Below are positions 4,155 through 61,935 of a stretch of 64,000 nucleotides of DNA, in pieces. Below the pieces are notes generated by a model that saw only the letters and a list, made by a program, of their open reading frames with translations, was not told the origin of the DNA and did not search any database. A program made the position numbers and the translations under genes. The DNA lies in contig CAVTKD010000003.1 of assembly GCA_963735235.1 (NCBI GenBank), forward strand, positions 4,441 to 68,440, written 5' to 3'. Each line of letters opens with the position of its first letter. The first letter of the stretch is position 1. This DNA comes from an uncultured Solirubrobacterales bacterium (GTDB taxonomy: Bacteria > Actinomycetota > Thermoleophilia > Solirubrobacterales > 70-9).

Positions 4155-5111
4155 TCACGAGCTGACTTTACTGGGGGCGTCAACCTCGGCCGGCGCCTCG
4201 ACGAAGTCGAGCCACTCGTGGTACTCCTCGGCGCGACCGTAGAGGGCGTCCTCGAACTTGGCCTGGACGTGGGCGGTGATCTCGCCGGGTTTGCCGGCCC
4301 CGATCGTGTGGTCGTCGATCTCGCGCACCGGCACCAGCTCGGCGGCGGTCCCGGTGAGGAAGACCTCTTCGGCCAGGTACAGCTCGGCCCGGGCGATGTC
4401 GCGCTCGACCACGGTGTAGCCGAGGTCGCGGGCGATCTGGATCACCGATTTGCGGTTGATCCCGTCGAGGATCGAGGCGACGTGCGGCGGCGTCACTATC
4501 TCGCCCTCGCGGACGACGAAGATGTTCTCGCCCGAGCCCTCGCAGACAAAGCCGCGTTCGTCGAGCAGGATCGCCTCGTCATAGCCGGAGTTGTGCGACT
4601 CGGTCTTGGCGAGGATCGAGTTCAGGTAGGAGCCCGAGGCCTTGGCGTGCGGGATCGAGCCGCCCGGGCTGATCCGGCGCCAGCTCGAGACCTTGGCGCG
4701 GATGCCGGCGGCCTTGCTCTCCTCGCCGAGATAGACGCCCCAGGGAAAGGCGGCGACGATGACGTCGATCGGGGCGTCGGTCGCGTAGAGGCCGAGGCTG
4801 CCGTAGCCGCGGTAGGCGAGCGGGCGGATATAGGCGGACTTGAGGTCGTTGCGGGTCAGCAACTCGTGCGTGGCGGCGCGGATCTCGGCCGCCGAGTAGG
4901 GCAGGTCCATGTAGTAGAGCGACGCCGACTTCTCGAGGCGGGCGAGGTGGTCGGCGTGGCGGAAGATCGCCGGGCCGCGCGCGGTCTCATAGCAGCGGAT
5001 CCCCTCGAAGACGCCGGTGCCGTAATGCAGGCCGTGACTGAGCACGTGGGTCTGGGCATCCTCCCAGCGCACGAACTCGCCGTTCTTCCAAATCAAATCG
5101 ACCTGATCCAT
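4155..5111 (-). CDS. ilvE: Branched-chain amino-acid aminotransferase
   Basis: 318 aa. Class IV aminotransferase pattern: HGLHYGTGVFEGIRCY, YIRP, GIRAKVSSWRR, AKASGSYLNSILAK, FLTGTAAELVPV. Confidence 0.9.
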   Translation of the reverse strand: MDQVDLIWKNGEFVRWEDAQTHVLSHGLHYGTGVFEGIRCYETARGPAIFRHADHLARLEKSASLYYMDLPYSAAEIRAATHELLTRNDLKSAYIRPLAYRGYGSLGLYATDAPIDVIVAAFPWGVYLGEESKAAGIRAKVSSWRRISPGGSIPHAKASGSYLNSILAKTESHNSGYDEAILLDERGFVCEGSGENIFVVREGEIVTPPHVASILDGINRKSVIQIARDLGYTVVERDIARAELYLAEEVFLTGTAAELVPVREIDDHTIGAGKPGEITAHVQAKFEDALYGRAEEYHEWLDFVEAPAEVDAPSKVSS

Positions 5112-5199
5112 GTTGCAGGGAAGTATGCCCGATCAAACGAAGGTCTTCACCCCCACCGCCGCGAATGACGGCCGAAAGCGAAAAAGGAGACATCAGTCC

Positions 5200-6024
5200 A
5201 TGAATTCAAGACTTCGCCCGAAACTCAGCTACTCGAACGTGATCGCGTCGATTGCGCTCTTCGTCGCCCTCGGTGGCGCCGCCGTGGCCGCCGGCCTGCC
5301 CAAGCACAGCGTCGGCGCCCAGCAGCTCAAGCGCGGCGCCGTCAATGCCGCCGCCCTCAAGAAGGGCGCCGTGACCAGCGGCAAGCTGGCGCCGAAGTCG
5401 GTCGTCGCCGGCAAGCTCGGCCCCAACTCGGTCTCGCCGGGCAACATCGGCAATGGCGCGATCACCAGTGCCAAGCTCGCCGCCGGCTCGGTGCTCGCCA
5501 GCACGATCAAGAACGGCGTCATCACCAACCCGAAACTGGCCAACGGCGTCATCAACACAGCGAAACTGGCCGCCAACGCCGTCACCACGCCGATCCTCGC
5601 CAACGGCTCGGTGACTCCGGCGAAGCTCTCGACCGAAATCGGCGGCACCGTCTCGACGCTGAAGGCAGGACAGACGCTCCGCGGTGTCTTCGTCGTCGGC
5701 CCGAGCGGCGAGAAAATCTCGCGCTTCTCGGAAAGCTTCCCGATCCCACTCGCGAACACGCCGGCGGCACCCAACGCGAATGTGCTCGGCATCGGCGCGA
5801 CGAGCACCGCCTGTCCCGGCATCACCGGCGGCAACGCGGCGACACCGCAGGCCGCGGCCGGACAGCTATGCGTCTACATCACCTCAAAAGCCGGGGAAAC
5901 GCTGGAAGGACTCGAATTCGACCCCGCCGCAACCAACCGGCTTGGCTTTGGCCTGACGGCCGGCTTCCTGGCGCCAAGCGTGGAAAACGTCGTCCGCGGC
6001 CAGTGGGCAGTGACCGCTCCCTAG
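5200..6024 (+). CDS. Membrane-anchored or secreted protein with 11 tandem decapeptide repeats; function unknown
   Basis: ATG at 5200 is preceded by AAAAGGAGA. It has an N-terminal hydrophobic anchor [18 protein letters not shown]. Residues 36-145 form decamers of the type NG-x-V-T-x-x-KLA. Confidence 0.6.
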
Positions 6025-7130
6025 GCGGAAAGCGCCGCGAGGACCGCGTCGGTCATCTCGGCTGTTCCGACCTCGACCTCGGCGGGGACGTCTGGCATCG
6101 GTGGTGCCGCCAGCGTCCCCGCGGCGAGGTCCGGAGTGCGCAGGCCGCGCTCCAAGACCACGTCGACGGCGGCCTCGATCCGGCTAGCGTCCTCGGGCCG
6201 ATCGAGGCCATGGCGCAGCATCATCGCCACCGAGAGGAAGGTCGCCAGCGGGTTGGCGATCCCTTTGCCGGCGATGTCGGGGGCCGAGCCGTGGACCGGC
6301 TCGAAGAGGCCCGGGGCACCATCGACGCCAAGGCTGGCGGACGGCAGCATTCCCAGCGACCCGGTCAGCATCGCCGCCTCATCGCTGAGGATGTCCCCAA
6401 AGAGGTTCTCGGTGACGATCACGTCGAAGTCGGCGGGACGCGAGATCAGCTGCATCGCCGCGTTGTCGACCAGCAGGTGGTCGAGGGCGACATCGGCGTA
6501 CTCCGGGGCGACGCGGGCGACCACCTCGCGCCACAGTCGCGAGGTCTCGAGCACGTTGGCCTTGTCGACCGAGGTGACTCGAGGCGGGCGGCCGGAGCTC
6601 GCGGCGCGCCGGCGCGCCGCCTCGAAGGCGGTGCGGGCGATGCGTTCGATTTCCTCGGCCGAGTACTCGCAGGTGTCGTGGGCGACGTCGCCGTCGCGGC
6701 CGGAATCCCCGAAGTAGATGCCGCCGGTGAGCTCGCGGACGACGAGCAGGTCGGTGCCGGCGATGCGCTCCTCGCGCAGCGGGCTGGAGCCGACCAGGGC
6801 CGGGCTGGGTCGGACCGGGCGCAGGTTGGCGTAGAGGCCCATGCCCTTGCGCAGGCCGAGCAGCCCTTGCTCTGGACGCGGCGCGTCGGGGTCGGTGGTG
6901 TCCCACTTGGGGCCGCCGACGGCGCCGAGCAGGACCGCGTCGGCGGCGCGGCAGACCTCCAGCACCTCGTCGGTCAGGGCGGTGCCGTGGACATCGATTG
7001 AGCAGCCGCCCATCAGGCGCTTGTCGAACTGGAACTCTCCCAGCGACTCCAGCAGCTGCTGGGCCGCCGCGACGATTTCCGGGCCGATCCCGTCGCCGGG
7101 AAGGACAACTATGCGCGGGGCGTCGCTCAC
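6021..7130 (-). CDS. leuB: 3-isopropylmalate dehydrogenase
   Basis: 369 aa. Motifs: [53 protein letters not shown]. Confidence 0.92.
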
Positions 7131-7141
7131 GCGGCGGAACT

Positions 7142-7927
7142 CTACGCGTTAGCCGGCGACGGGACGGCCTCGATGTTGAGGCGCACGTAGTCGAGGACCA
7201 GCGGCTGCTCGGAACGGTCGAGGATCGCTTCGGCGAACGGTCGCCGCAGCTGCTCGGGAAGCTGTGCCAGGAGCGGGCCGAGCGTGACGGTCGAGGTGAA
7301 CTCGAGCGGCTTCTCCGGCTGCACCGGTCGAGGTTCCAGCCAACAGCGGGCGGCGGAGAACCCGGCCCGCCGCAATCGCGCCTCGGTCTCCTCGGCGGAG
7401 GCGAAGTTCCAGCTCGACGCCACCGTCTCGATGTGTGCGGCGAACTCCGGCAGCGCCGCGACGGTCGCGATCACCTCAGCGTGAAGGGCGATGTTCCCCT
7501 CTCCCCCACACTGCGCAACCAGGCGCCCGCCGGGCCGCAGCGCCGCCCGCAGACGCTCGAAGAGCCGGTCGTGATCGGGGATCCAGTGCAGGGTCGCGGT
7601 CGAGAAGACCAGGTCGACCGGCTCCTCCAGCTGCAGCTCGGAGAGGTCGGCGATGAGGTAGGTGACCTCAGTCCCCAGCCGCTCGCGAGCCTTGGCGACC
7701 ATCGCCGACGAGCCGTCGACGGCGATCAGGCGGCCATCGGGCAGCCGTTTCGCCAACTCGGCGCTGACCCGGCCGGAGCCGCAACCCGCGTCGAGCGCCA
7801 CCTCGTCGCCGCTCAGCTCGAGCCGGTCGAGCACCTCCATGCCCCAGGTGAACTGCGGGTCGGAGACCGCGTCGTAGGTGTCGGCGTCCCACTCACGCGG
7901 ACCGTTGCTGTTCGTCGCCGCGGACAT
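7142..7927 (-). CDS. Class I SAM-dependent methyltransferase, trans-aconitate methyltransferase (Tam)-like
   Basis: 261 aa. SAM motif I is [11 protein letters not shown]. The layout is Tam-like (WDADTYD...LHWIPDH...L.PGG.L). It sits between leuB and leuD. Confidence 0.7.
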
Positions 7928-7937
7928 CTCAGCTTGC

Positions 7938-8513
7938 TCAGAGCGCCGTCGTCACCGGGGCCTGCGGGTCGCCCGCGGAGCCCTCGTAGGCGTCGATCGC
8001 GGCGCCGTTCTCGAGCGTGATCGCGATGTCGTCGAGGCCGTTCAGCAGCCGGTGCTTGACGTCCGGCTCGACCGCGAACTCGAAGACCCCGGCGGCGCAG
8101 GTGATCGTCTCGTCGTCGACATCGATGCGAGCCTCGCCGGCCTCGGCGACGGCGCGGCAGTGCTCCTCGTCGAGGATCGCCGGCAGCAGCCCGATCTTGG
8201 TGCAGTTGACGTAGAAGATGTCGGCGAAGGACGGCGCGACGATCGCCTCGAAGCCGAAGTCCTCGAGCGCCCAGGGAGCGTGCTCGCGGGAGGAGCCACT
8301 GCCGAAGTTGCGCCCGGTGACGAGGATCGGGTTCGGCTCCAGCTCGATCTCGCCGTCACGAATCCAGTCGTAGAAGAGGAACTCGCCGAAGCCGGTCCGC
8401 TCGACCCGCTTGAGGAACTGCTTGGGGATGATCTGGTCGGTGTCCACGTCGGCCCGGTCCAGCACCGACACCTTGCCCTCGATCAAGTCAATCGGCCTCA
8501 TCTTCAACTCCAA
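7938..8513 (-). CDS. leuD: 3-isopropylmalate dehydratase small subunit
   Basis: 191 aa. Motifs: [34 protein letters not shown]. The start may be the TTG at 8513 or the ATG at 8501. Confidence 0.9.
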
Positions 8514-9889
8514 TCACGGATGTCTACGAAACGTCCCTCGATGGCCGCCGCCGCCGCCATCTTCGGGCTGACCAGGTGGGTGCGCCCACCCTTGCCCTGC
8601 CGTCCCTCGAAATTGCGGTTCGAGGTCGAGGCGCAGCGCTCGCCCTCGGCGAGCGTGTCGGGGTTCATCCCCAGGCACATCGAGCAGCCCGCCTCGCGCC
8701 ATTCGAAGCCGGCGCCGCGGAAGACCTCGTGCAGCCCCTCCGCCTCGGCGGCGGCCTTGACCTGCTGGGAGCCGGGGACGACCATCGCCCGCACCGTGGC
8801 GGCGACCTTGCGGCCGTCGACCACTGCGGCGGCCTCGCGCAGGTCCTCGATCCGCGAGTTGGTGCAGGAGCCGATGAAGACCCGGTCGGGGGCGACCTCG
8901 GTCATCGGCGTGCCGGGCTCCAGGTCCATGTAGGTCAGCGCTCGCTCGGCGGTTTCGCGATCCCCCGGCGACTCCATCGCCGCCGGGTCGGGGACCGTGT
9001 CGGTGACCTCGACGACCATCCCCGGATTGGTGCCCCAGGTGACCATCGGCGAGATCGCCGCGGCGTCGATCTCGACCTCGGTGTCGAAGGTCGCGCCGGG
9101 GTCGGTCGGCAGCTCGCGCCAGGCCGCGACCGCGGCGTCGAAGTCCGCCGGCGCCGCGGTACGACCACGCACCCACTCGAAGGTGGTCTCGTCGGGCGCG
9201 ATCATCCCGGCCCGGCCACCGCCCTCGATGGTCATGTTGCAGATCGTCATCCGGCCCGGCATCCCCAGCGCCTCGATCGCCGGCCCGGCGTACTCGACCG
9301 CATGACCGGCCATGCCGCCGGTGCCGAGGCGGCCGATCGTGGCCAGGATCAGGTCCTTGGGAGTCACCCCGGAGCCCAGTTCGCCCGAGTAGGAGATCCG
9401 CATCGCCTTCGGCCGCTTCTGGACCAGGCACTGGGTCGCCAGCACGTGCTCGACCTCGGAGGTGCCGATGCCGAAGGCCAGCGAGCCGAAGGCGCCGTGG
9501 GTCGAGGTGTGACTGTCGCCGCAGACGATCGTCATGCCCGGCTGGGTCACGCCCAGCTCCGGCCCGATCACGTGGACGATGCCCTGGCGGTCGGAGCCCA
9601 GCGAGTAGAGCGGGATGCCGAACTCCTCGCAGTTGCGCTCCAGCGTTTCGACCTGGATCCGCGAGAGCTCGTCGGCGATCAGTCGCGCCGCCATGGTGCC
9701 GTCGGTCGGCGTGTTGTGGTCGGCGGTCGCCAGGGTGCGGTCGGCACGCCGCACCGGGCGCCCGGCCAGCCGCAGCCCGTCGAAGGCCTGCGGCGAGGTG
9801 ACCTCGTGGACCAGGTGCAGGTCGATGTAGATCAACCCGTCGGAGACCTCGTGCGCCTCCCAGATCTTTTCGAACATGTTCTTGGGCAT
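8504..9889 (-). CDS. leuC: 3-isopropylmalate dehydratase large subunit
   Basis: 461 aa. Aconitase-family motifs: [48 protein letters not shown]. Confidence 0.95.
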
Positions 9890-51426: not shown

Positions 51427-54400
51427 CTAGCGCTTCCGGATCGGCGCGTAGTCGGCCATCAGCTTGCGCTCGGTGCCGTCGCCGGAGAAGCGGACGACGA
51501 CCACGCCACCGGGCTCGACCGCGGTGACGACGCCGTCGCCGAAGCTGGCGTGGACGACGTCGTCGCCGGTCCGCATCTCCAGCGCCGGCCCCGGGTCGAC
51601 CGGCTGGGCCGGGTCGGCCGCCGGCGAAGGGGTCCAGGTCATGCCGCCGACGGTGCTCGAGGCCGTCGCGTGGCGCTCGGTCAGCTCCACCGGCAACTCG
51701 TCGATGAAGCGCGAGGGCAGGTTCCGCTCGGCCCGCCCGAAGAGGCGGCGCTCGCGGGCCCAGGTCATGTAGAGGCGCCGGCGGGCGCGGGTGATGGCGA
51801 CGTAACAGAGGCGTCGCTCCTCTTCTTCGCCACCCTCTTCGAGCGCTCGCATGTGCGGGAAGGAACCGTCCTCGCAGCCGACCACGAAGACCGTGTCGTA
51901 CTCCAGGCCCTTGGCGTTGTGGACGGTCATCAGGGTGACCAGCTCCTGCTTGTCCTCGATCGAGTCCTGGTCGCTGAGCAGCGATATCTGCTGCAGGAAC
52001 TCCTCCAGGGGCGGAACCTCGCTCTCCCCCTCGCGCTCGCGGTTCATGTCGAACTCGGCGGCGGCCTCGCTCAGCGCTTCGAGGTTCTCTACCCGCCCCT
52101 CGGCTTCGACCGTGCGCTCGGCTTCGAGCGCTTCCAGGTAGCCGGTCTCACTCAAGACGGCCTGGAGGAGGTCGCTGACCGACGACCCCGCGTCCACCCG
52201 CCCCCGCAGCAGGTCCATCGTCTCGAAGAAGCGCGAGACGGCCTTGATCGCGGCGGCGCTCAGCCCCGGCACCTCCTCGGCCCGTTCGATCACCTCCCAG
52301 ATCGTCAGCCCGGCGGTGTTCGCGTAGGCGGCGAGCCGGCCCTGGGTGGTGTCGCCGATGCCCCGCCGCGGCGAGTTGACGATCCGCGCGAAGGAGACCT
52401 GGTCGGCCGGGTTGAAGAGCAGGCTGAGATAGGCGACGGCGTCCTTGACCTCGGCGCGGTCGTAGAACTTGGTGCCGCCGATCACCTGGTACGGGACCTC
52501 GAAGCGGACCAGCGTGTCCTCGAGGATCCGGCTCATCGCGTTGGTGCGGTAGAAGACCGCGACGTCGGAGCGGGCAACCCCGTGCTCCTCGCCGAGCCGC
52601 TCGATCTCCGCCGCCACCCAGCGTGCCTCCTCGTGATCGTCGTTCAGCTCGGAGAGCTGGACCAGCTCGCCGCCCTCGATATCGGTCCAGAGCTCCTTCG
52701 GCCGCCGCTCGCGGTTGCGCTCGACGACCGCGTTGGCGGCCGAGAGAATCGTCTGGGTAGAGCGGTAGTTCTGCTCGAGCTTGACCACGGCGGTGTCTGG
52801 AAAGTCCTGCTCGAAGTCGAGGATGTTGCGGATGTCGGCGTGACGGAAGCCGTAGATCGAGTTGTGCGTAACCAAGCCGTTGGCGACGAAGTTGTGGGTG
52901 CCCTCGACGTTGATGTCATATACGGGACGGTCGAGAGCCACCCGCTCGACAGAGATGACGGAGTCATAGCTGCCGTCCTCGGCGAACATCGTCATCCCCG
53001 GTCGCACCGAAGCCGCTGGGATGAAGTTCAGCGAACTGCCGGAAATCTGCCCGCTCTGCGTGGCCCCGAAACGCGCCTGGAAAGTCACGTCGACATCGAG
53101 GACGGAACTGATGTCGCCGGCTATGCGCACCGCCTCCCCGTAGTCCTTGAGGACCGTCTCGAAGCGCCATGAGTCAGAGCCCGGCTTGGCCTCGCGCACA
53201 TTGAGACCGATGGCTTCAAGCGCATCGCGACCCTGCTGATCACGCCCGGCGAGAGCGATGCGATGCATCGGCGTAGCTCCCCTGCTCTCCCCGCAGAGCG
53301 TCACTCTGAGGACCCGCCTGCGACCGTCCGAGGTCGCGGCGAGGTGATGCGGATGCTGAAGACCAAGCCCCTCATCTTGAAGCAGTTGACGCCCGCCGGA
53401 GTCGGTGTCGAGCGTGGTGAAAACATCATCGATCAGAGCCTGGTTGCCGACCAGGCTGTTTCCCGAGGCAGATCTGCGCCGGAGGAAAGGCAACATCGGC
53501 AACCCATAGCGCAGCGCCAGGAGCAACTCTGCGGCGCGCGCCTCGGCGTCGGTCTCGTGAGCTGAGATCACCCAGACGGCATCGGCATGCTCGTGCAAGC
53601 AACGCTGTCGGATCCCGACCGCCGCTTTCCCTCGCTGCGTGTATACGCCTGAGGTCCCGACGCGAAACCCCACACCCCGCTTCCACATCAGGTAGGCGAG
53701 ATGCATCTGCGGAGTCGACCCAAGCCGGTAGCCGGCGAAATGAGTGTGCTCCGGAGTGCTTACGAGCCGCCTGCCCGCCCGAGTCTCGATGGCGATCCCC
53801 TCGCGGTTCCAGGCTTTGAAGACTCCCGTCACCCGGGCGGGGCGGAAATCGCCACCCCCGTGGGAAGACATCACCATGTCGCCCTCATCCAGCTGCTCAA
53901 TCGGCCGCTTCGAGCCATCGCCCATGGTCACGGACGTTCCCTCGACCAGGCACTGGTCCTCGTCCCCAACCACCATCAGATTTCCGTGCTCTGAAGCCAA
54001 AAGCTGCAACAGCCGGTACTGGGCGTGGTTGGTGTCCTGGTACTCGTCGACGAGCACGTGGCGAAAGGTCCGCCGCCAGCGCTCGCGCACGTCCTCGAAC
54101 AGCTCCAGCGCGTTGACCGTGCGCACCAGCAGGTCGTCGAAGTCCATCGCGTTGGCTTCGAGCATCCGCTTCTCGTAGAGCGGGAAGGCTTCGGCGACGA
54201 CCTCTTCGAAGACGCTGCCCTGCATTTCCGTGTACATGTCGCTGTCGACCAGCTGGTTCTTGGCCCCGGAGATCTTCGAGTGGATCGCCCGCGGCGGGTA
54301 GCGTTTCGGGTCCACCCCGAGCTCGCGCAGGCAGCGTTTGAGCATCCGCAGCGAGTCCGACTGATCGTAGATCGTGAAGCCGCGCGAGTAGCCGAGGCGC

Positions 54401-54786
54401 TCGGCGTCGACGCGCAGCATCCGCGCGCAGGCCGAGTGGAAGGTCGTCACCCACATCGCCCGCACCGAGCGGCCGACCAGCTCGCCGACCCGCTCGCGCA
54501 TCTCCGCCGCCGCCTTGTTGGTGAAGGTGATTGCGAGGATCTCACCCGGGCGGGCCTCGCCGGTGGCCAGCAGGTAGGCGATCCGGTGGGTCAGGACCCG
54601 AGTCTTTCCGGAGCCGGCGCCGGCGATGACCAGGAGGGCGCCCTCGCTGTGCTCGACGGCCTCCCGCTGGGGGGGATTGAGGCCGGCGAGCAGCCGCTCG
54701 ACGCGGTCGGCCCCGACCTCCGTGGGTGCGGCGCCGGGGCCGGGCTGGCCTTCCGGCGGAGTCTCGAACTGAGCCTGAAAGGTCAC
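51427..54786 (-). CDS. uvrD: UvrD/PcrA-type ATP-dependent DNA helicase, interrupted by a 364-aa intein
   Basis: 1119 aa. SF1 motifs: AGAGSGKT (I), TFTNKAA (Ia), VLVDEYQDTN (II), VGDEDQ | SIYGFRHAD (III, split by the intein), YRS, VMTVHNAKGLE-type TLMTVHNAKGLEYD (V), YVAITRAR (VI). Confidence 0.92.
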   Translation of the reverse strand: MTFQAQFETPPEGQPGPGAAPTEVGADRVERLLAGLNPPQREAVEHSEGALLVIAGAGSGKTRVLTHRIAYLLATGEARPGEILAITFTNKAAAEMRERVGELVGRSVRAMWVTTFHSACARMLRVDAERLGYSRGFTIYDQSDSLRMLKRCLRELGVDPKRYPPRAIHSKISGAKNQLVDSDMYTEMQGSVFEEVVAEAFPLYEKRMLEANAMDFDDLLVRTVNALELFEDVRERWRRTFRHVLVDEYQDTNHAQYRLLQLLASEHGNLMVVGDEDQCLVEGTSVTMGDGSKRPIEQLDEGDMVMSSHGGGDFRPARVTGVFKAWNREGIAIETRAGRRLVSTPEHTHFAGYRLGSTPQMHLAYLMWKRGVGFRVGTSGVYTQRGKAAVGIRQRCLHEHADAVWVISAHETDAEARAAELLLALRYGLPMLPFLRRRSASGNSLVGNQALIDDVFTTLDTDSGGRQLLQDEGLGLQHPHHLAATSDGRRRVLRVTLCGESRGATPMHRIALAGRDQQGRDALEAIGLNVREAKPGSDSWRFETVLKDYGEAVRIAGDISSVLDVDVTFQARFGATQSGQISGSSLNFIPAASVRPGMTMFAEDGSYDSVISVERVALDRPVYDINVEGTHNFVANGLVTHNSIYGFRHADIRNILDFEQDFPDTAVVKLEQNYRSTQTILSAANAVVERNRERRPKELWTDIEGGELVQLSELNDDHEEARWVAAEIERLGEEHGVARSDVAVFYRTNAMSRILEDTLVRFEVPYQVIGGTKFYDRAEVKDAVAYLSLLFNPADQVSFARIVNSPRRGIGDTTQGRLAAYANTAGLTIWEVIERAEEVPGLSAAAIKAVSRFFETMDLLRGRVDAGSSVSDLLQAVLSETGYLEALEAERTVEAEGRVENLEALSEAAAEFDMNREREGESEVPPLEEFLQQISLLSDQDSIEDKQELVTLMTVHNAKGLEYDTVFVVGCEDGSFPHMRALEEGGEEEERRLCYVAITRARRRLYMTWARERRLFGRAERNLPSRFIDELPVELTERHATASSTVGGMTWTPSPAADPAQPVDPGPALEMRTGDDVVHASFGDGVVTAVEPGGVVVVRFSGDGTERKLMADYAPIRKR
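52861..53952 (-). mobile_element. Intein (364 aa) inserted in helicase motif III
   Basis: The N-terminus is CLVEGTSVTMGDG (Cys1, codon complement 53950-53952). Block B is VSTPEHTH (TxxH). The C-terminus is VYDINVEGTHNFVANGLVTHN, followed by the +1 Ser of SIYGF. The length is a multiple of 3. Removing it restores VGDEDQSIYGFR. Confidence 0.85.
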
Positions 54787-55489: not shown

Positions 55490-56218
55490 TCAGCCACCGG
55501 CCGACGAACGGCCGGTGCGGGGCCGGATCTCCGGCGAGCCCGCGGCCGGGCCGTCGGCGCCGTCGAGCTCCGCCAGCCGCCGCTCGAGGTCGGCGATCCG
55601 CTCCGAGAGGCCCTTGATCGCGTCGGCGATCGGGTCCGGCAGGTGGATCCAGTCGGCGTCGGGCCCCTCGACCCGCTTGCCCTCGACCCGGACCGGGTGG
55701 CCGGGGTTGCCGACCACGGTCGCCCCCGGCGGCACGTCCTCGACGACGACCGTGTTGGCGCCGACCTTGGCGCCGTCGCCGACCGCGATCGGGCCGAGCA
55801 GCTTGGCCCCGGAGCCGACGGTGACGTTGTCCCCGAGTGTCGGGTGGCGCTTGCCGCGCTGGAAGCCGGTGCCGCCCAGCGTCACCCCCTGGTAGAGCGT
55901 CACCCGGGTGCCGATCCGCGCCGTCTCGCCGATCACGACACCGGCGCCATGGTCGATGAAGAACTCCTTGCCGATCTGGGCGGCGGGGTGGATCTCCACC
56001 CCGGTCACGATCCGGGCCGCGTAGGCGATCACGCGGGGCAGCACCGGCACCCCGGACTCCACCAGGGCGTGGGCGGCGCGGTGGGCGAGCAGCGCCTGCA
56101 CGCCGGCCCAGCTGCTGAGGATCTCGAAGCTGGATACGCCCTGGGCGGCCGGGTCGCGGTCGCGGGCCGCGGCGATGTCGGCGCGCACCTCGGAGACCGC
56201 CCTCTTCCACCTGCTCAT
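55490..56218 (-). CDS. cysE: Serine O-acetyltransferase
   Basis: 242 aa. Motifs: [58 protein letters not shown]. Confidence 0.88.
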
Positions 56219-57168
56219 GGTGAGAAGAAGGGTAGGGACATGTAGCGCTCGCCCGAGTCGCAGACGACCGTCACCACCCTCTTGCCGGCCATCTCCGGAC
56301 GCGCCGCGATCTCGAGCGCGGCTTTGATGTTCGCCCCGGCGGAGATCCCGGCCAGGATGCCCTCCTCGCGGCCCGCCAGCCGGGCCGTCTCCAGGGCGTC
56401 CTCGTCGGAGACCGCGACGATCTCGTCGATCACCGAGCGGTCCAGCAACTCGGGGACGAAGCCGGCGCCGATCCCCTGGATCTTGTGCGGGCCCGGGGCG
56501 CCGCCGGAGAGGACCGGGGAGCTGGCCGGCTCGACCGCGACCACCAGTGCCTCGGGGGCGCGCTCGCGCAGCATCCGCCCGACCCCGGTGATCGTCCCCC
56601 CCGTGCCGACCCCGGCGACGAAGGCGCCGACCTGACCGCCGGTGTCGCGCCAGATCTCCTCCGCGGTGGTGCGCCGGTGGGCCTCGGCGTTGGCGGGGTT
56701 GGAGAACTGCATCGGCATGAAGGCCTTGCGCTGCTCGCGGATCTCCTCGGCCAGGGCGACCGCCTCGTTCATCCCGCCCAGCGAGGGCGTCTCGCGGACC
56801 TCGGCCCCGTAGGCGCGCAGCAGCTTGGAACGCTCGCGGCTCATCCCCTCGGGCAGGGTCAGGATCAGCTCGTAGCCGCGCGCCGCGCAGACCATCGCCA
56901 GGGCGATCCCGGTGTTGCCGCTGGTCGGCTCGACCACGACCGAGCGGCCGGGCTTGACCAGTCCCGCCTCTTCGGCGGCGTCGATCATCGCCACCCCGAT
57001 CCGGTCCTTGACCGAGCCGCCGGGGTTGAAGTACTCGAGCTTGGCGCAGACCTGCGCGCCCAGCCCCTCGGCGAGCCTGTCCAGCAGCACGATCGGCGTG
57101 TTGCCGACCGCGGCCGAGGCCTCGGGGCGGATGCCCGCCGCGCTCTTCCCCTCTTCGGATCCGCTCAT
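56215..57168 (-). CDS. cysK: Cysteine synthase (O-acetylserine sulfhydrylase)
   Basis: Trimmed to MSGSEEGK. Motifs: [22 protein letters not shown] (PLP Lys), [22 protein letters not shown]. The stop overlaps the cysE start. Confidence 0.9.
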
Positions 57169-57258
57169 CTCCCCAGTTTCGCCGACCGCTCGGCCGAACG
57201 GCACCTCGATAAGCTCGCGCTCGCGTCCTTGCAGCAGCATCGAAGAGGAGATCGAGGT

Positions 57259-57735
57259 TTGAGGAAGGTCGACCGCTGGTACCGACTCGCCCACAGCCTG
57301 CAGGCCAGGGGCATCCCGATCGCGCCGAAGCTGATCTCCTACGCGGTCCGCTTCATCTTCGGCTGCTGGATCCCGCCGCAGACCGAGATCGGCGAGGGCA
57401 CCGTGTTCGGCTACGGCGGCCTCGGGATCGTCGTACACGGCGATGCAACGATCGGGCGCGACTGCTCGATCGCCCAGAACGTGACGATCGGCGGTGGCCG
57501 CGGCGGGCCCAGCGCCGACGGTCGCAGCCTGCCGAAGCTAGGCGACAACGTCATGGTCGGCGCCGGCGCCGTGATCCTTGGAGCGGTCGAGATCGGTGAC
57601 AACGCGATGGTCGGCGCCAACGCGGTCGTCACTACCGACATTCCCCCAAACGCCATCTTCGGGGGAGTTCCGGCCCGCCTGATCCGAATGCGCCGCGAGA
57701 GCGACATCGACGCCACCAGCATCCTCGACGGCTAG
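57259..57735 (+). CDS. Short hexapeptide-repeat (LbH) acyltransferase, serine-acetyltransferase-like
   Basis: Trimmed to the TTG at 57259 after GAGGAG. Motifs: [57 protein letters not shown]. It is divergent from cysK. Confidence 0.7.
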
Positions 57736-57769: not shown

Positions 57770-57786
57770 ATGAAGTACATGCCGGA
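57770..57786. repeat. Left copy of a perfect 17-bp direct repeat (attL-like), ATGAAGTACATGCCGGA
   Basis: Identical to 61541-61557. On the minus strand, with its flank, it reads TCC GGC ATG TAC TTC ATC TGA, which is SGMYFI-stop. Confidence 0.95.
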
Positions 57787-57811
57787 TTGGGGAGCACAAT
57801 CTCGCATCGGT

Positions 57812-58123
57812 TCACCTTACTTGTGCGCCACCTGTGCTCATCGCGGCGTACAGGCTTCCCACGGCCGAGTCGATGGTGTCACGCACATGCTGGCGGTTCC
57901 GCTGCTCCCGGTCGTAAGCGAGCTGCGCCTCTTGAAGCTCCAAGTCATAGGCGAGCTGCGCCCCATGAAGCTCCCGGTCATGCGAGAGCTGCTCCTGCTG
58001 CCGGTGGTTGGCCGTACGTGCGGAAATGTATGCCGCGACGATGGCCGTCACGGCGATCAGCGCCGGTCCGATCACCTGGTGCCACCAGGGATCACCGCCG
58101 ACAAGATGCACGTCCACTGCCAT
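57812..58123 (-). CDS. Small single-TM protein with a coiled-coil tail containing 11-aa tandem repeats
   Basis: 103 aa. The TM segment is VIGPALIAVTAIVAAYISA. The repeats are ELHGAQLAYDL / ELQEAQLAYDR (33-nt DNA repeats at 57908-57940 and 57941-57973, 27/33 identical). Third codon positions are GC-rich on this strand but not on the overlapping plus ORF. Confidence 0.5.
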   Translation of the reverse strand: MAVDVHLVGGDPWWHQVIGPALIAVTAIVAAYISARTANHRQQEQLSHDRELHGAQLAYDLELQEAQLAYDREQRNRQHVRDTIDSAVGSLYAAMSTGGAQVR

Positions 58124-58182
58124 CCGATTAATTATCGCTGCGCGGGGCCCAGGGGCTATATTCGTCAGACGTCCTAGGTAGC

Positions 58183-58410
58183 GTGGTAGCCATGCCGGAT
58201 ATGGAACTCACGAAGGAAGTAATTGAAGTATCGACGCGCCTGATCGATGCGAGCCGGGAGGGCGAAATCGAAGGCAAAGATGTTGCAGCCCAGATTGATA
58301 GGCCCGATGTCGACCTTTACTACGCGTTCCAAGAGGCCAAGCGACGAGGCGTGCTGAAGATGTATTTCCCCGGAGGCATGGGACTGCCCTCATTGATTCG
58401 GCGACCCTAG
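58183..58410 (+). CDS. Small hypothetical protein (75 aa)
   Basis: ORF only. It has no recognisable motif, and its start could be the internal MELTKEV. Confidence 0.35.
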   Translation: MVAMPDMELTKEVIEVSTRLIDASREGEIEGKDVAAQIDRPDVDLYYAFQEAKRRGVLKMYFPGGMGLPSLIRRP

Positions 58411-58507
58411 CGAGAGCCCCTGGGACGCCGCCCGTCATTCGTTGTCTGAAACCGGGGCTCTCCCTCCTCCTGAGTCGCGCTTTCGCAGTCGTTTCGTCCA
58501 TGACCTT

Positions 58508-59647
58508 TTAGTTCGGCGAGTCCTCATCGAGCGCATCTGGATTGACCAAGACGACTACCTCCGGGTCAATGCCCTCGGCGCAAAACAGGCGCGGCACTCC
58601 CCCGCCTCCCCCGGCCAGTTCGACTTGGACCTTGGCTTCTCGATAGGCCTCCGCTACCGAACGACCGAAGCCCAGCGAGTTGTAGAACTGCCCCGCGAAG
58701 ACCTTGGCGTCTTCATCGCCAATGGCTGCGTCCATCCCAATAGCCAGATCTACATGCCGAATAGCGACATCAGCCTGAGCAGCCGAATCACAGCTATTGA
58801 ACAGAATGAGTCGCACGCCACCGGCAGCAGCCTCGAGCAGGCGGCCAAGCATCGTGTTATCCAGCGTCCGAGTGGAGCCATTCTCGTCCTCGAAGGCGAG
58901 GCCGCTGTTACTCCCGTGACCGCTGAAATGAAGGACCGTTGGACGAACTTCATTGAGATCATCGAGCAAATCTCGTAGCTGGCGGGCCATGCGGGCGCGG
59001 AAATAGATCGAATCCCGGTAATCAGAAGCTCGGACTCGCTTTTCGATCTCGCGGGTCTCCCTGTCCAATCTAAGAGAGGTCTGGTCCTCTGGACTGGACG
59101 CTAGGAAGAGGACCGCTACCTCCGGAGGGGCTGCTTGCCGACTGGCCTCTTCAAGGCGCCTCTCAAGCTCCGTGATCTTGTGATCCTGCTGGGCCTCTCG
59201 CTGCGCGCGCTCAGCGTCGGCAGCGTGTTGGGAACGTTCCTCGCGCTTACGCCGGTCGGCCTCCGAACGCTCAGCTTGGCGACGTCGTTGATCTTCTTGG
59301 CGTTTTTTCTGTTCCTCGGCGCGACTCGCTTTCTTGCGCTCAGCTTCTTCCTCCGAGCGAAGCTTCTCTTCGGCCTTGCCAACTTTTTCTTTCGCCTTGC
59401 CGGTGTCTCCCAATCGCCTTGAGACATCGGTTCGGGCGCTCGCCAATTGACGTTGCATGGATTCAATTTGGCGGCCATAGCTACGAATCTGAGAATCCGA
59501 GCGAGATTGGGCCGCGCGCCCTTCCAGCTTGGCGATCTCATTTTCGAGATTGGTTTGCTTCTTCGAGGCATCAAAGTGACGCTTGGTCGCGCCATCGAGA
59601 TTCCGTCGATCTTGCTTCAGCGCTTGCTGGGCACTAGAAACAGACAT
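58508..59647 (-). CDS. Coiled-coil protein with a C-terminal CHAT-type (caspase-like) domain
   Basis: Trimmed to MSVSSAQQ (ATG complement 59645-59647). The first ~190 aa form an E/R/K/Q-rich coiled coil. These are followed by VAVLFLASSPEDQTSLRLDRETREI, VLHFSGHGS (His) and LILFNSCDSAAQA (Cys), then LAIGMDAAIGDEDAKVFAGQFY. Confidence 0.7.
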   Translation of the reverse strand: MSVSSAQQALKQDRRNLDGATKRHFDASKKQTNLENEIAKLEGRAAQSRSDSQIRSYGRQIESMQRQLASARTDVSRRLGDTGKAKEKVGKAEEKLRSEEEAERKKASRAEEQKKRQEDQRRRQAERSEADRRKREERSQHAADAERAQREAQQDHKITELERRLEEASRQAAPPEVAVLFLASSPEDQTSLRLDRETREIEKRVRASDYRDSIYFRARMARQLRDLLDDLNEVRPTVLHFSGHGSNSGLAFEDENGSTRTLDNTMLGRLLEAAAGGVRLILFNSCDSAAQADVAIRHVDLAIGMDAAIGDEDAKVFAGQFYNSLGFGRSVAEAYREAKVQVELAGGGGGVPRLFCAEGIDPEVVVLVNPDALDEDSPN

Positions 59648-59700
59648 GAAGGCCACGGTAACGAGGCCGTCGGAGGTCGCATCTAGGTACGTCGAGTGGG

Positions 59701-60465
59701 TTAGCCAGCCCCAACCTCTTGACGCCAGACATCGATGATGTCCGCGCGCCACATCTTCCGCGTCCCTCCCCGCACCCGCTTTCCCGTCTTGACTTTCTCG
59801 GCGAGTTCAGCCAGAGACCGAGCATGGCGAGGTTGCCAACCATGGCGCACAGCCCACGCACGAAGCTGATTGGTGTCGTAGTCCTCGCCTGCGGCGTTGA
59901 GCAGCTTGAGCATCTGGACAGCCGATTCCTTGTCCGATGGGTGGCCGAGTCCGGTGCTGAGATTGACCGAGTTGGTTAACGACTCCATCGCCTTTTCAAC
60001 CACGGGATTCTCAATGGTCTCGTCGCCGCCGCCTTGCTTCCCCGTCCGAATATCCACGGGATTCCAATTGGTCTTCCATCCGTCGATGTCGGTCCTCGAC
60101 CAAGGGATCGCGCAAATCCCCGGCGGACGAAGACCATCGATCTTGTCGAGCTGCTTGTCATTCACCCACACGGCCAGGATCGGGCCGTCTTCAAATGCGA
60201 CGGGGATCTTTCTCTCGACAAGGAGATCGATGGTGGTCCCGTCAACCTCGATCTGCCGGTTTCGATGAAGCTCGCGTGCAACCTCGGTGCCCACCACCCA
60301 GCCAAGGCTCTCAATTTGAGTCACCCCCGAAACGAACACCGCACCTCTCCGATACCCGCCCTCCTCAGCAACCCTAAACAGCCAGCGGAAACCCTCTGCG
60401 ACAGCAGAGTCATCAGCGCCGTGGGCATCGGCAAAGGCACGCTGAGTGGAATTAGCTCTATTCAT
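59701..60465 (-). CDS. Hypothetical protein (254 aa) upstream of and co-oriented with the CHAT gene
   Basis: Trimmed to MNRANSTQ. It has an alpha/beta-looking N-terminal part (GAVFVSGVTQIESLG, GPILAVWVND) and a helical C-terminal part (LRAWAVRHGWQPRHARSLAELAEKVKTGKR). I recognise no family. The gap to the CHAT gene is 53 nt. Confidence 0.55.
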   Translation of the reverse strand: MNRANSTQRAFADAHGADDSAVAEGFRWLFRVAEEGGYRRGAVFVSGVTQIESLGWVVGTEVARELHRNRQIEVDGTTIDLLVERKIPVAFEDGPILAVWVNDKQLDKIDGLRPPGICAIPWSRTDIDGWKTNWNPVDIRTGKQGGGDETIENPVVEKAMESLTNSVNLSTGLGHPSDKESAVQMLKLLNAAGEDYDTNQLRAWAVRHGWQPRHARSLAELAEKVKTGKRVRGGTRKMWRADIIDVWRQEVGAG

Positions 60466-60535
60466 AGGACAACAAAATACGAGCGACCTCGGTCGATCAG
60501 GCCTCAGGCATAGCGATTTGGGAATACTGGATCGG

Positions 60536-61411
60536 ATGACGCTGATCGTCGGGAGGCACAATCTCAATGGCGTGATTCACGTAGTTGGCGACATGCGTCT
60601 GACTGATCCCGCCGAGATCAGGCGTGGCTATCCCTACGCCGTCCTTAAGAACATCATTCTCGGCCCAGACCACCTCGTGGCCTTCGCGGGAAATGCCGAC
60701 CTCGGGATGCACACGATTCGCAGGCTCAAAGATGCTCCCATTGAAGAGCTTGCGGGTGGGCTTTTTGATTCCGCGAAGGAAGCAGGCGGCGGACCCGGCG
60801 GAGTGGATTACCTGCTGGCCCATACTGAGCGCGGTCTGCAACGGGTCACGGCCAGCGGCGTCGAGGGGCCGACCGACGCCGGATGGATCGGTGACCCGGC
60901 CGCCTTTGAGATCTACCAACGTGGGTACCACGCAGCGCCCGTGCCAGAGCCGCTCTGGATCGAGGGCGTAAGCCCGCCCCGCGATCAATTAGGCGACCCC
61001 GCTGCCATGGAGCCATTCATCCGAATGGGCATGGGAACTTTCGCGCTGATGGAGAGCGAAAGCGTTGCCAGCGTTGGCGAGGTCTTTGTCACGGCCAACT
61101 CAAAAAGGGGCTTTCATTACGAGCAGCAAGGGTTCTTCCAAGCCGATCACGAGCAGGAGATCGGATCAGAGTGGACCGATCTCAACTGGGGGACCGCTGC
61201 CCAAGGGGGGTTTGGGTTCAATCTCCTTCCGCCCAAAGAGCACGGGACTGGGGCCATCGGCCTGTATTTCCCACATGGGGGACTTGGGCTTCTCTACCAC
61301 CCACTGGCTTATGGCGATGCGCTCGTCTATCGGCATGTGACTCACGACGAATTCTGCGCAGCGGTTGCTGAGGATCACGAAATTGAGATCGACGGACCCC
61401 GCCTAGCCTGA
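60536..61411 (+). CDS. Hypothetical protein whose N-terminal ~160 aa resemble an HslV/proteasome beta-type Thr1 Ntn-hydrolase, plus an unknown C-terminal domain
   Basis: Trimmed to MTLIVGRHNLNGVIHVVGDMRLTD. By eye it aligns with E. coli HslV [22 protein letters not shown]...KKVRRL...[14 protein letters not shown] via MT-IV, NG, GD, LKNIIL and LVAFAGNADLGMHT. The CDS itself is confident. The fold call is tentative. Confidence 0.5.
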   Translation: MTLIVGRHNLNGVIHVVGDMRLTDPAEIRRGYPYAVLKNIILGPDHLVAFAGNADLGMHTIRRLKDAPIEELAGGLFDSAKEAGGGPGGVDYLLAHTERGLQRVTASGVEGPTDAGWIGDPAAFEIYQRGYHAAPVPEPLWIEGVSPPRDQLGDPAAMEPFIRMGMGTFALMESESVASVGEVFVTANSKRGFHYEQQGFFQADHEQEIGSEWTDLNWGTAAQGGFGFNLLPPKEHGTGAIGLYFPHGGLGLLYHPLAYGDALVYRHVTHDEFCAAVAEDHEIEIDGPRLA

Positions 61412-61426
61412 ATCCACGGGCGTTTC

Positions 61427-61459
61427 GTGCGCCACTGGTGCGCCAGTCGTGCGCCAGTA
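61427..61459. repeat. Three tandem 11-bp repeats, GTGCGCCA(C/G)T(G/C/A), at the right edge of the islet
   Basis: GTGCGCCACTG GTGCGCCAGTC GTGCGCCAGTA. They are followed by the tandem aaCCGGACTc agCCGGACTg (61471-61490) and the hairpin CCGCTT-GAAC-AAGCGG (61495-61510). Confidence 0.9.
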
Positions 61460-61536
61460 CGACCGGAAACAACCGGACTCAGCCGGACTGCGCTCCGCTT
61501 GAACAAGCGGAATCCCCAGTGCCCATGCGCCCCGAT

Positions 61537-61935
61537 CTAAATGAAGTACATGCCGGAGCCGGACTCTTCGGCCTCGCGGCGGGCGACTTCGGCGATCGTG
61601 GTCTGGCCGAAGACCTTGCGCAGCGCCGTCACTCCCTCCGACCAGATACCCCCCGCCTCGTCGGCCTCCTGGCCGATCTTGCCGTCCAGCGCCTGCACGA
61701 CCTCCAGCACGGTGATCTCTTCGGCCGGGCGCGAGAGCGTGTAGCCGCCGCGCATGCCGCGATGGCTGGTCAGCAAACCGGCCCGCCGCAGAGTCGAGAA
61801 GAGCTGCTCGAGGAACTGCTCGGGGATCTCGCGGCGCTCGGCCAGCTCCTTGATCGGCACCGGCCGCTCGCCGGAGCGGGCGAGCTCGGCGAGGGCGACG
61901 ACCGCGTAGCGGGACTTGGAGGTGATCGAGATCAC
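61537..61935 (-). CDS. Rrf2-family transcriptional regulator (CymR/IscR-like)
   Basis: 132 aa. Motifs: MISITSKSRYAVVALAELA, PVPIKELAERREIPEQFLEQLFSTLRRAGLL.S.RG..GGY.L. Confidence 0.88.
   Translation of the reverse strand: MISITSKSRYAVVALAELARSGERPVPIKELAERREIPEQFLEQLFSTLRRAGLLTSHRGMRGGYTLSRPAEEITVLEVVQALDGKIGQEADEAGGIWSEGVTALRKVFGQTTIAEVARREAEESGSGMYFI
61541..61557. repeat. Right copy of the perfect 17-bp direct repeat (attR-like), inside the 3' end of the Rrf2 gene
   Basis: ATGAAGTACATGCCGGA. The minus strand reads ...TCC GGC ATG TAC TTC ATT TAG, which is SGMYFI-stop of the intact Rrf2 ORF. Confidence 0.95.

Follow-up and report, generated by a model that had tools for sequence, protein, structure and literature searches.

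A candidate autonomous CHAT protease cassette in a mosaic genomic island of an uncultured Solirubrobacterales bacterium

The gene considered here encodes a 379-amino-acid (aa) protein and lies in a 64,000-nucleotide (nt) stretch of DNA from an uncultured Solirubrobacterales bacterium (GenBank assembly GCA_963735235.1, contig CAVTKD010000003.1, positions 4,441 to 68,440), referred to below as the window. It occupies positions 58508-59647 of the minus strand (ATG at 59647, stop at 58508), and databases name it merely 'CHAT domain-containing protein'. We suggest, with a probability of about 0.6, that it is an autonomous single-gene CHAT protease cassette, probably a defense or abortive-infection effector that would be activated by assembly. 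The cassette would combine a helical hairpin of ~95 aa and a charged helix of ~75 aa tethered to a caspase-like cysteine protease. The initial annotation of the window had described a two-gene operon, in which the CHAT gene is preceded by a gene for a 254-aa protein (59701-60465, minus strand; ATG 60465, stop 59701), and, together with a divergent gene, a three-gene protease-based module. Reading of the open reading frames (ORFs) agrees with its gene lengths, strand, and 53-nt spacing (59648-59700), and the peptides it quoted (VAVLFLASSP, LRLDRETREI, VLHFSGHGS, LILFNSCDSAAQA, LAIGMDAAIGDEDAKVFAGQFY, and LRAWAVRHGWQPRHARSLAELAEKV) are all present. The program-made ORF list gives the CHAT gene 414 aa from an upstream GTG; since the N-termini of more than 30 homologs begin with MS(V/I)S, the start was set at ATG 59647.

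The C-terminal part of the protein (aa 177-370; 58538-59119, minus strand) is assigned by sequence and model comparisons to a bona fide CHAT/caspase fold, that is, to the caspase-like cysteine proteases of clan CD. We consider this assignment solid, because the Pfam match, the profile match to PDB entry 8TL0, the invariant dyad, the AlphaFold2 model, and the Foldseek search agree. The CHAT call of the initial annotation is borne out by PF12770 (41.2 bits against a cut-off of 24, E-value 1.8e-10, residues 162-342). A profile built from 34 family members has a single solved match in PDB, 8TL0 (E 2.3e-21, residues 182-363), in which HFSGH-G pairs with HFIGH-G, and FNSC with LNAC. The AlphaFold2 model, based on the same 34-member alignment, has a mean predicted local distance difference test (pLDDT) score of 86 and contains a beta/alpha domain from residue 177 to ~370. 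Foldseek with this model ranks 8TL0 first (E 2e-12), followed by caspase-4/1/9/6, CED-3, MALT1, and separase, and the sole matches in a viral fold library are giant-virus caspase-domain proteins and generic long helices.

The predicted catalytic residues are His244 in the motif HFSGHG (codon 58916-58918, minus strand) and Cys286 in FNSC (58790-58792, minus strand). Both are invariant in all 34 family members, with identity down to 39%, and likewise in each of 50 relatives whose architecture differs, so that the dyad context proposed earlier is intact. In the alignment with 8TL0, His244 corresponds to H375 of SAVED-CHAT (chain residue 355 plus a constant offset of 20 residues) and Cys286 to C422. 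Dyad-dependent proteolysis by the 379-aa protein is thus predicted from sequence and model. Could the gene be a decayed, non-catalytic remnant in which the CHAT fold is kept as a scaffold only? The island that contains it has no integrase and is relic-like, and truncated CHAT fragments of 141 aa occur on Staphylococcus plasmids; however, nothing is missing from the ORF, which can be aligned with its relatives from one end to the other, and neither the dyad nor ~36 further positions vary among the 34 sequences, which makes such decay hardly credible and, of all the explanations considered here, the least probable.

PDB entry 8TL0 is the SAVED-CHAT protein from the type III-B CRISPR (clustered regularly interspaced short palindromic repeats)/CBASS (an antiphage signaling system based on cyclic oligonucleotides) locus of Haliangium ochraceum (10.1101/2023.06.23.546230), captured as an activated filament. 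Its dyad H375/C422 was assigned experimentally, and the protein is monomeric and inactive until cyclic triadenylate (cA3) drives filament formation (Steens et al., 10.1101/2023.06.23.546230). By profile and by fold it is the nearest solved relative, with a similarly short C-terminal CHAT domain of ~190 aa and an aligned dyad. The difference is at the N-terminus, which in the 379-aa protein and its relatives of the same architecture (a helical N-terminal module followed by a short CHAT domain, hereafter cc-CHAT) is a helical hairpin with a charged helix and not SAVED. No SAVED sensor was found: the modeled N-terminus of the 379-aa protein is all-helical, and the relatives match the PADLOC SAVED_CHAT profile at ~300-455 only.

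The N-terminal module is modeled as a helix at residues 3-47, a short turn, and one continuous helix at residues 51-172. Its first part is the hairpin (aa 1-95; 59363-59647, minus strand), where in the best register 77-83% of the heptad a/d positions of residues 3-95 are hydrophobic, with Ala counted. The second part (aa 96-172; 59132-59362, minus strand) is a highly charged long helix that would link the hairpin to the protease as a stalk. The initial annotation had described ~190 aa of charged coiled coil here; a long charged helical region indeed exists, but the composition of residues 96-172 does not fit a classical coiled coil, with 57% D/E/K/R, 5% large hydrophobic residues (ILMFVWY), and a heptad a/d occupancy of 32%. 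This part appears closer to a single helix of the ER/K type. Heptad-preserving insertions and deletions were sought in the stalk, but its lengths among the relatives are not consistently multiples of seven.

The hairpin links cc-CHAT proteins to other families. The window protein matches PDC-S66, a PADLOC profile for a phage-defense candidate (E 3e-8), with residues 1 to ~150 aligned to profile positions 1 to ~150 of 282, and so do ten of ten diverse cc-CHAT relatives (E 1e-20 to 6e-7, residues ~1-137). The phage or prophage family phrog_15646 is matched in the same manner, by the window protein (E 4e-5, residues 1 to ~150 on profile ~1-150) and by nine of nine cc-CHAT relatives, again in the N-terminal half. 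A full-length match to PDC-S66 was not obtained, as ~1-139 of its 282 positions are covered and its C-terminal half is replaced by CHAT. Because profile coverage stops at the N-terminal half, cc-CHAT, PDC-S66, and phrog_15646 share an N-terminal domain and differ C-terminally: the ~137-aa domain starts at residue 1 in every cc-CHAT protein tested, whereas profile positions ~140-282 of PDC-S66 and ~140-293 of phrog_15646 are unmatched and CHAT stands there instead. Like cc-CHAT, PDC-S66 is a single-gene entry; in the searchable literature it appears solely in PADLOC output lists.

For the analysis of gene context, 181 comparison loci were fetched in total, and those discussed individually are labeled L001, L027, and L174-L180. 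A hidden Markov model (HMM) built from 61 N-termini and run against all the fetched DNA found one further protein with the hairpin, a 509-aa protein of L027 (Pseudomonas poae DSM 14936). This is the Septu ATPase PtuA (5449-6978, minus strand; PADLOC E 1e-45), followed by PtuB (4772-5452, minus strand; E 3e-29) and divergent from a cc-CHAT gene (7803-8927). The first 114 residues of PtuA align from Met1 without gaps to the cc-CHAT N-terminal domain (HMM E 2e-17; pairwise identity 30%, E 9e-8), so that in this locus one putative sensor module is present on two adjoining, different effectors, the PtuA ATPase and CHAT. The effector of Septu is the AAA_21/PtuA ATPase with its HNH partner PtuB and not a protease. 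As PDC-S66, phrog_15646, and the L027 PtuA all carry the N-terminal domain, the hairpin is a portable module found on at least three effector types, two of them in defense-annotated families. A phmmer search with residues 1-115 against 1.84 billion representative sequences gave six matches, none informative about other fusions, and tblastn with two N-terminal domains found nothing in phage genomes, perhaps due to low-complexity filtering.

The cc-CHAT family is large and widespread. A word-indexed search found at least 347 homologs, nearly all of ~345-390 aa, with the nearest of those listed coming from metagenome-assembled genomes of Solirubrobacterales, and pattern scans gave at least 600 matches in each of two collections, of species-representative genomes and of metagenomes. 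Full-length relatives with 30-40% identity were identified in Cyanobacteria, Bacillota, Bacteroidota, Pseudomonas, Franconibacter, Dehalococcoidia, and other groups. Among the fetched loci, the full-length architecture is present in 72 non-redundant ones, with proteins mostly of ~344-389 aa. Elsewhere, the same short-CHAT clade includes proteins in which the domain is joined to nSTAND1 and WD40, to TIR, or to other regions, in agreement with the initial remark that this module is usually found on NTPase or repeat sensors. CHAT relatives are also encoded on plasmids. For instance, a Staphylococcus aureus plasmid (L180, NZ_CP134069.1, 4097-4522) encodes a 141-aa 'CHAT domain-containing protein' that matches residues 202-371 only. 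This apparently truncated fragment recurs on 13 other Staphylococcus plasmids, which are small multiresistance plasmids, beside an Fst toxin and a cation transporter. No description of a coiled-coil CHAT defense gene, or of this architecture, was found in the searchable literature.

The CHAT genes are frequently located beside integrases, restriction-modification genes, and other defense or mobile-element genes. In L175, L176, and L177 a tyrosine integrase at the end of an element is immediately followed by the CHAT gene, and in L001 an integrase lies ~2 kb upstream of the CHAT gene. Among 126 immediate neighbors, the commonest Pfam family is Phage_integrase (9/126), followed by Topoisomerase/Toprim, ResIII, type I restriction-modification subunits, AbiEii-like AAA_21, PDDEXK nucleases, and others. 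PADLOC matches among the neighbors are spread over many systems with at most three members each, and Septu, as described above, adjoins the CHAT gene in L027. The TPR, TIR, STAND NTPase, and gasdermin families are not among the commonest in this neighbor census.

Such contexts may also be read in another way, namely that the CHAT protein works for its own carrier, the mobile element, as a regulatory protease that cleaves a repressor of the element or of the host, as an addiction or stabilization factor, or as a weapon against competing elements. This is the main rival to a defense role, and an unlikely one in our estimation. The gene adjoins an integrase/Xre module at the element end in the closest relatives, some relatives are plasmid-borne, and there is no conserved partner, while cargo genes shuffle among related elements. 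On the other hand, the carriers are very different element types in different phyla with no conserved regulator or repressor partner, the islands of the window and of L174 contain no integrase, and a Septu ATPase as well as a PADLOC candidate contain the N-terminal domain, a sign of defense modularity.

CHAT proteases such as HetF work in cell division and differentiation, and the 379-aa protein could be a housekeeping or developmental protease of the host, acting in the manner of cyanobacterial HetF and situated in a variable region by chance. A weak NCBIfam match to HetF was indeed observed, but with an E-value of 0.32 it is insignificant. Moreover, the gene is placed within a repeat-flanked low-GC island, its distribution is patchy with integrase, restriction-modification, and plasmid contexts, and its neighbors change even between proteins with 94% identity, which together make a host function of this kind quite improbable.

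The same changes of neighbors bear on the operon model of the initial annotation, in which the 254-aa and CHAT genes, possibly with the divergent 291-aa gene, form one system and the 254-aa protein is a sensor, regulator, or substrate. The model has in its favor the shared strand, the 53-nt gap without a predicted terminator, and the presence of all three genes in one small low-GC island. To assess co-occurrence, the 254-aa and 321/291-aa proteins (the latter with two alternative starts) were compared by tblastn with all 181 fetched loci. The 172 CHAT loci represent 140 non-redundant ones, 58 of them full length and with 1 kb or more of sequence upstream. None of the 172 contains a homolog of the 254-aa or the 291-aa protein, and none of the eight loci with a 254-aa homolog contains CHAT. 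A three-gene system was also sought with the two small ORFs of the island added to these queries, again with no CHAT co-occurrence. When ORFs within 4 kb on either side of the CHAT genes were clustered in 171 loci, neighbor families comprised at most 12 loci, and the bigger clusters come mainly from loci that recur together across many families and are probably copies of one element.

Two comparison loci illustrate how the island may have been assembled. The L174 locus encodes a CHAT protein with 94% identity at the same chromosomal site, with the same Rrf2 and response-regulator neighbors. Five other genes are present there between Rrf2 and CHAT, including a DUF2188 gene and a gene for an Mrr_cat nuclease, located upstream of CHAT, so that even the nearest CHAT gene has a different upstream neighbor. 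Nucleotide homology of L174 to the window is restricted to positions 62885-61439 (85%) and 59691-58468 (92%). In L178, homology covers positions 59715-61626 with 79-82% nucleotide identity, that is, the 254-aa gene and, divergent from it, the 291-aa partner, and a DUF2188 gene, not CHAT, is located downstream of the counterpart of the 254-aa gene. Since the homology to L174 ends where that to L178 begins, the junction of two modules can be placed at 59691-59715, within the intergenic gap or at its margin. The CHAT gene thus shares no conserved operon with either the 254-aa or the divergent 291-aa gene, and we regard an operon of two genes, like a protease-based module of three, as highly improbable. 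The 76-aa DUF2188 genes of L174 (2760-2990) and L178 (6799-7029) are 91% identical, while these two islands otherwise share different modules of the window. Related Solirubrobacterales elements seem to reshuffle small cargo genes such as CHAT, DUF1889, DUF2188, and Mrr_cat.

A further point against the operon model is a promoter-like element directly before the CHAT start codon. The -10-like hexamer TACCGT (59660-59655) is located within the 53-nt gap, 7 nt before the ATG, and the pattern TAnnGT recurs with constant spacing to the ATG in eight of nine aligned upstream regions of relatives, with no Shine-Dalgarno sequence in these regions. Actinobacteria commonly have leaderless mRNAs with a -10 box ~7 nt before the start codon. 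Given the conserved TAnnGT, the lack of a Shine-Dalgarno sequence, and this habit of Actinobacteria, the pattern suggests that the CHAT gene has its own leaderless promoter and is transcribed independently. A scan of the island for sigma-70 promoters and terminators found no more sites than in shuffled sequences. More generally, same-strand neighbors in mosaic islands are not to be read as operons when genomes are annotated.

The island itself is 3.75 kb long (57787-61540) and contains the CHAT gene, the 254-aa and 291-aa genes, and two small ORFs. Its GC content is low: 0.59-0.62 across 58-62 kb against ~0.70 elsewhere in the window. It is bounded by two direct copies of the 17-nt sequence ATGAAGTACATGCCGGA, at 57770-57786 and 61541-61557 (plus strand), which occurs exactly twice in the 64 kb, with zero copies expected by chance. 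The proximal copy coincides with the last six codons of an Rrf2 gene (61537-61935, minus strand), and the distal copy, a boundary resembling a phage attachment site, reads SGMYFI followed by TGA on the minus strand. As both copies read SGMYFI-stop and one is the end of the Rrf2 gene, the pair is a signature of integration into the 3' end of a gene. The same repeat pair, in diverged form, surrounds the 5.9-kb island of L174 (1335-1351 and 7238-7254). No integrase gene was found in the window island, and no tRNA integration target within 50-64 kb.

The flanks of the island consist of core genes for housekeeping or regulation, with, on one side, an intein-containing UvrD gene, a hexapeptide transferase gene, cysK, and a second hexapeptide transferase gene, and, on the other, the Rrf2, response-regulator, and HDOD-LuxR genes. 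The two hexapeptide-repeat acyltransferase genes, similar to serine acetyltransferases (55490-56218, minus strand; 57151-57735, plus strand), flank the cysK-like PALP gene (56215-57438). Together with Rrf2 beyond the island, this arrangement would fit a regulon for cysteine metabolism that the insertion has split. The UvrD/PcrA-type helicase (1119 aa; 51427-54786, minus strand) has an intein, CLVEGT...VTHNS, inserted between the UvrD-helicase and UvrD_C domains, with the Pfam family Intein_splicing matched at residues 541-642. At the island edge, a 103-aa ORF (57812-58123, minus strand), which may not be a real gene, has weak matches to small phage families only. It may encode an N-terminal transmembrane segment, as judged by sequence, and contains three tandem 33-nt (11-aa) repeats at 57904-58002 (HDRELHGAQLA / YDLELQEAQLA / YDREQRNRQ...).

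The 254-aa protein, which the initial annotation had left without a placeable motif, can be partly classified. Its residues 155-231 match DUF1889 (PF08986; 33.7 bits against a cut-off of 26.9), and a profile search of PDB matches entries 2ES9 (E 4e-6) and 2JN8, with a Foldseek template modeling (TM) score of 0.80 on the target. In the AlphaFold2 model (pLDDT 90), an N-terminal alpha/beta domain of ~135 aa precedes the C-terminal DUF1889 helical domain. Thus the likeness to the Salmonella protein Q8ZRJ2 (2ES9, 2JN8), seen by Pfam, PDB profile, and fold, is confined to the C-terminal helical domain at aa 155-231, whereas the extra N-terminal domain of the 254-aa protein has no confident relative and gave weak, unconvincing fold matches only. 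The family counts 32 homologs. Their neighbors differ from contig to contig, with KAP NTPase, AbiTii, SduA_C, PIN, resolvase, relaxase, and DUF2188 genes but none of them shared, and no CHAT gene in the eight loci. We consider the 254-aa gene to be another independent, shuffling cargo gene.

The divergent gene (60536-61411, plus strand) is paired with the DUF1889 gene in L178 as well, and a homolog in L179 is accompanied neither by DUF1889 nor by CHAT. Its start is most likely at 60536 and not at 60446, since a database protein with 100% identity has 291 aa. The product belongs to an orphan family of ~20 members with no Pfam match and no PDB sequence match in the Pfam and PDB profile searches. 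Invariant residues include D19, R21, R30, W117, G119, and D120, and where sequences are complete the N-terminus is conserved as MT-L-[IV]-V-[GA]-R...GD-x-R-x-TD. The initial annotation had called the gene proteasome-like. Its N-terminus, with Thr directly after Met, is reminiscent of Ntn/HslV-type threonine hydrolases, although the link is statistically unsupported: residues 1-60 align in register with residues 1-57 of Escherichia coli HslV at an hhalign E-value of 0.05 and a probability of 1%.

In its predicted effector, the 379-aa protein resembles several known systems. TPR-CHAT/Csx29 (Craspase), the type IV Thoeris caspase, gasdermin-activating proteases, and STAND-CHAT all employ a caspase-fold cysteine protease as a conflict effector, but no TPR, TIR, STAND NTPase, or gasdermin match was found in the 379-aa protein or in the adjoining ORFs scanned. 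Among the island and flank ORFs examined there is no gene for a cyclic-oligonucleotide synthase, Cas10, or a PCaspase substrate, and no CHAT or caspase paralog is encoded within the 64-kb window. Bacterial caspase-like proteases serve as immune executioners, and an abortive precedent exists in the type IV Thoeris caspase, by which cellular proteins are degraded without discrimination.

Taken together, the family appears to be autonomous and horizontally mobile, without a fixed partner. The window island would have arisen by mosaic assembly, with the CHAT cassette placed beside an unrelated cargo module of the DUF1889 and 291-aa genes, and the cassette would probably be transcribed independently from the leaderless promoter described above. 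We propose that the helical module is the sensing part, the assembly part, or both. A trigger, most plausibly a cue from a phage or mobile element, would drive higher-order association of the protein, by which the CHAT domains would be brought together, similar to cA3-induced SAVED-CHAT filaments and to caspase proximity. The active protease may then cleave host or invader proteins encoded elsewhere, and growth or replication would stop. Caspases are activated by dimerization; this, and the need of SAVED-CHAT for oligomerization, is the analogy on which the assembly-activation model is built.

Several points weigh against this proposal. PADLOC recognizes no defense gene in the window's own island, and tblastn of the CHAT protein against 50,697 phage records found no relative. 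We infer the defense role, and PDC-S66 is itself an uncharacterized candidate. Because no hydrophobic heptad seam runs along the charged stalk, its sequence does not make self-assembly through this part evident. Finally, since the CHAT and 254-aa genes are co-oriented and 53 nt apart with no terminator predicted between them, incidental co-transcription is possible.

While CHAT and other caspase-like conflict effectors are already known, the sensor/scaffold module and the single-gene format are new here. One may tentatively go further, to a proposal that we hold with less confidence than the cassette itself: the hairpin-stalk-CHAT proteins of ~350-385 aa could represent a new autonomous one-protein immune system of caspase-like type in many bacterial phyla, the ~115-137-aa hairpin could be a portable domain for sensing invaders or for assembly, placed on CHAT, on the C-terminal domain of PDC-S66/phrog_15646, and on PtuA, and the ER/K helix could be a spacer that sets how readily the proteases meet. 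Caspase-like proteases are emerging as bacterial immune executioners, with Craspase, SAVED-CHAT/PCaspase, type IV Thoeris, and the gasdermin activators as examples. To our knowledge, every characterized caspase-like immune protease requires a signal generator or partner that is separate from it. If the proposal is true, a version in a single polypeptide would be a minimal model of the activation of a prokaryotic caspase-like enzyme by proximity or assembly, and the helical hairpin would be a new portable sensor domain for the discovery of defense systems.

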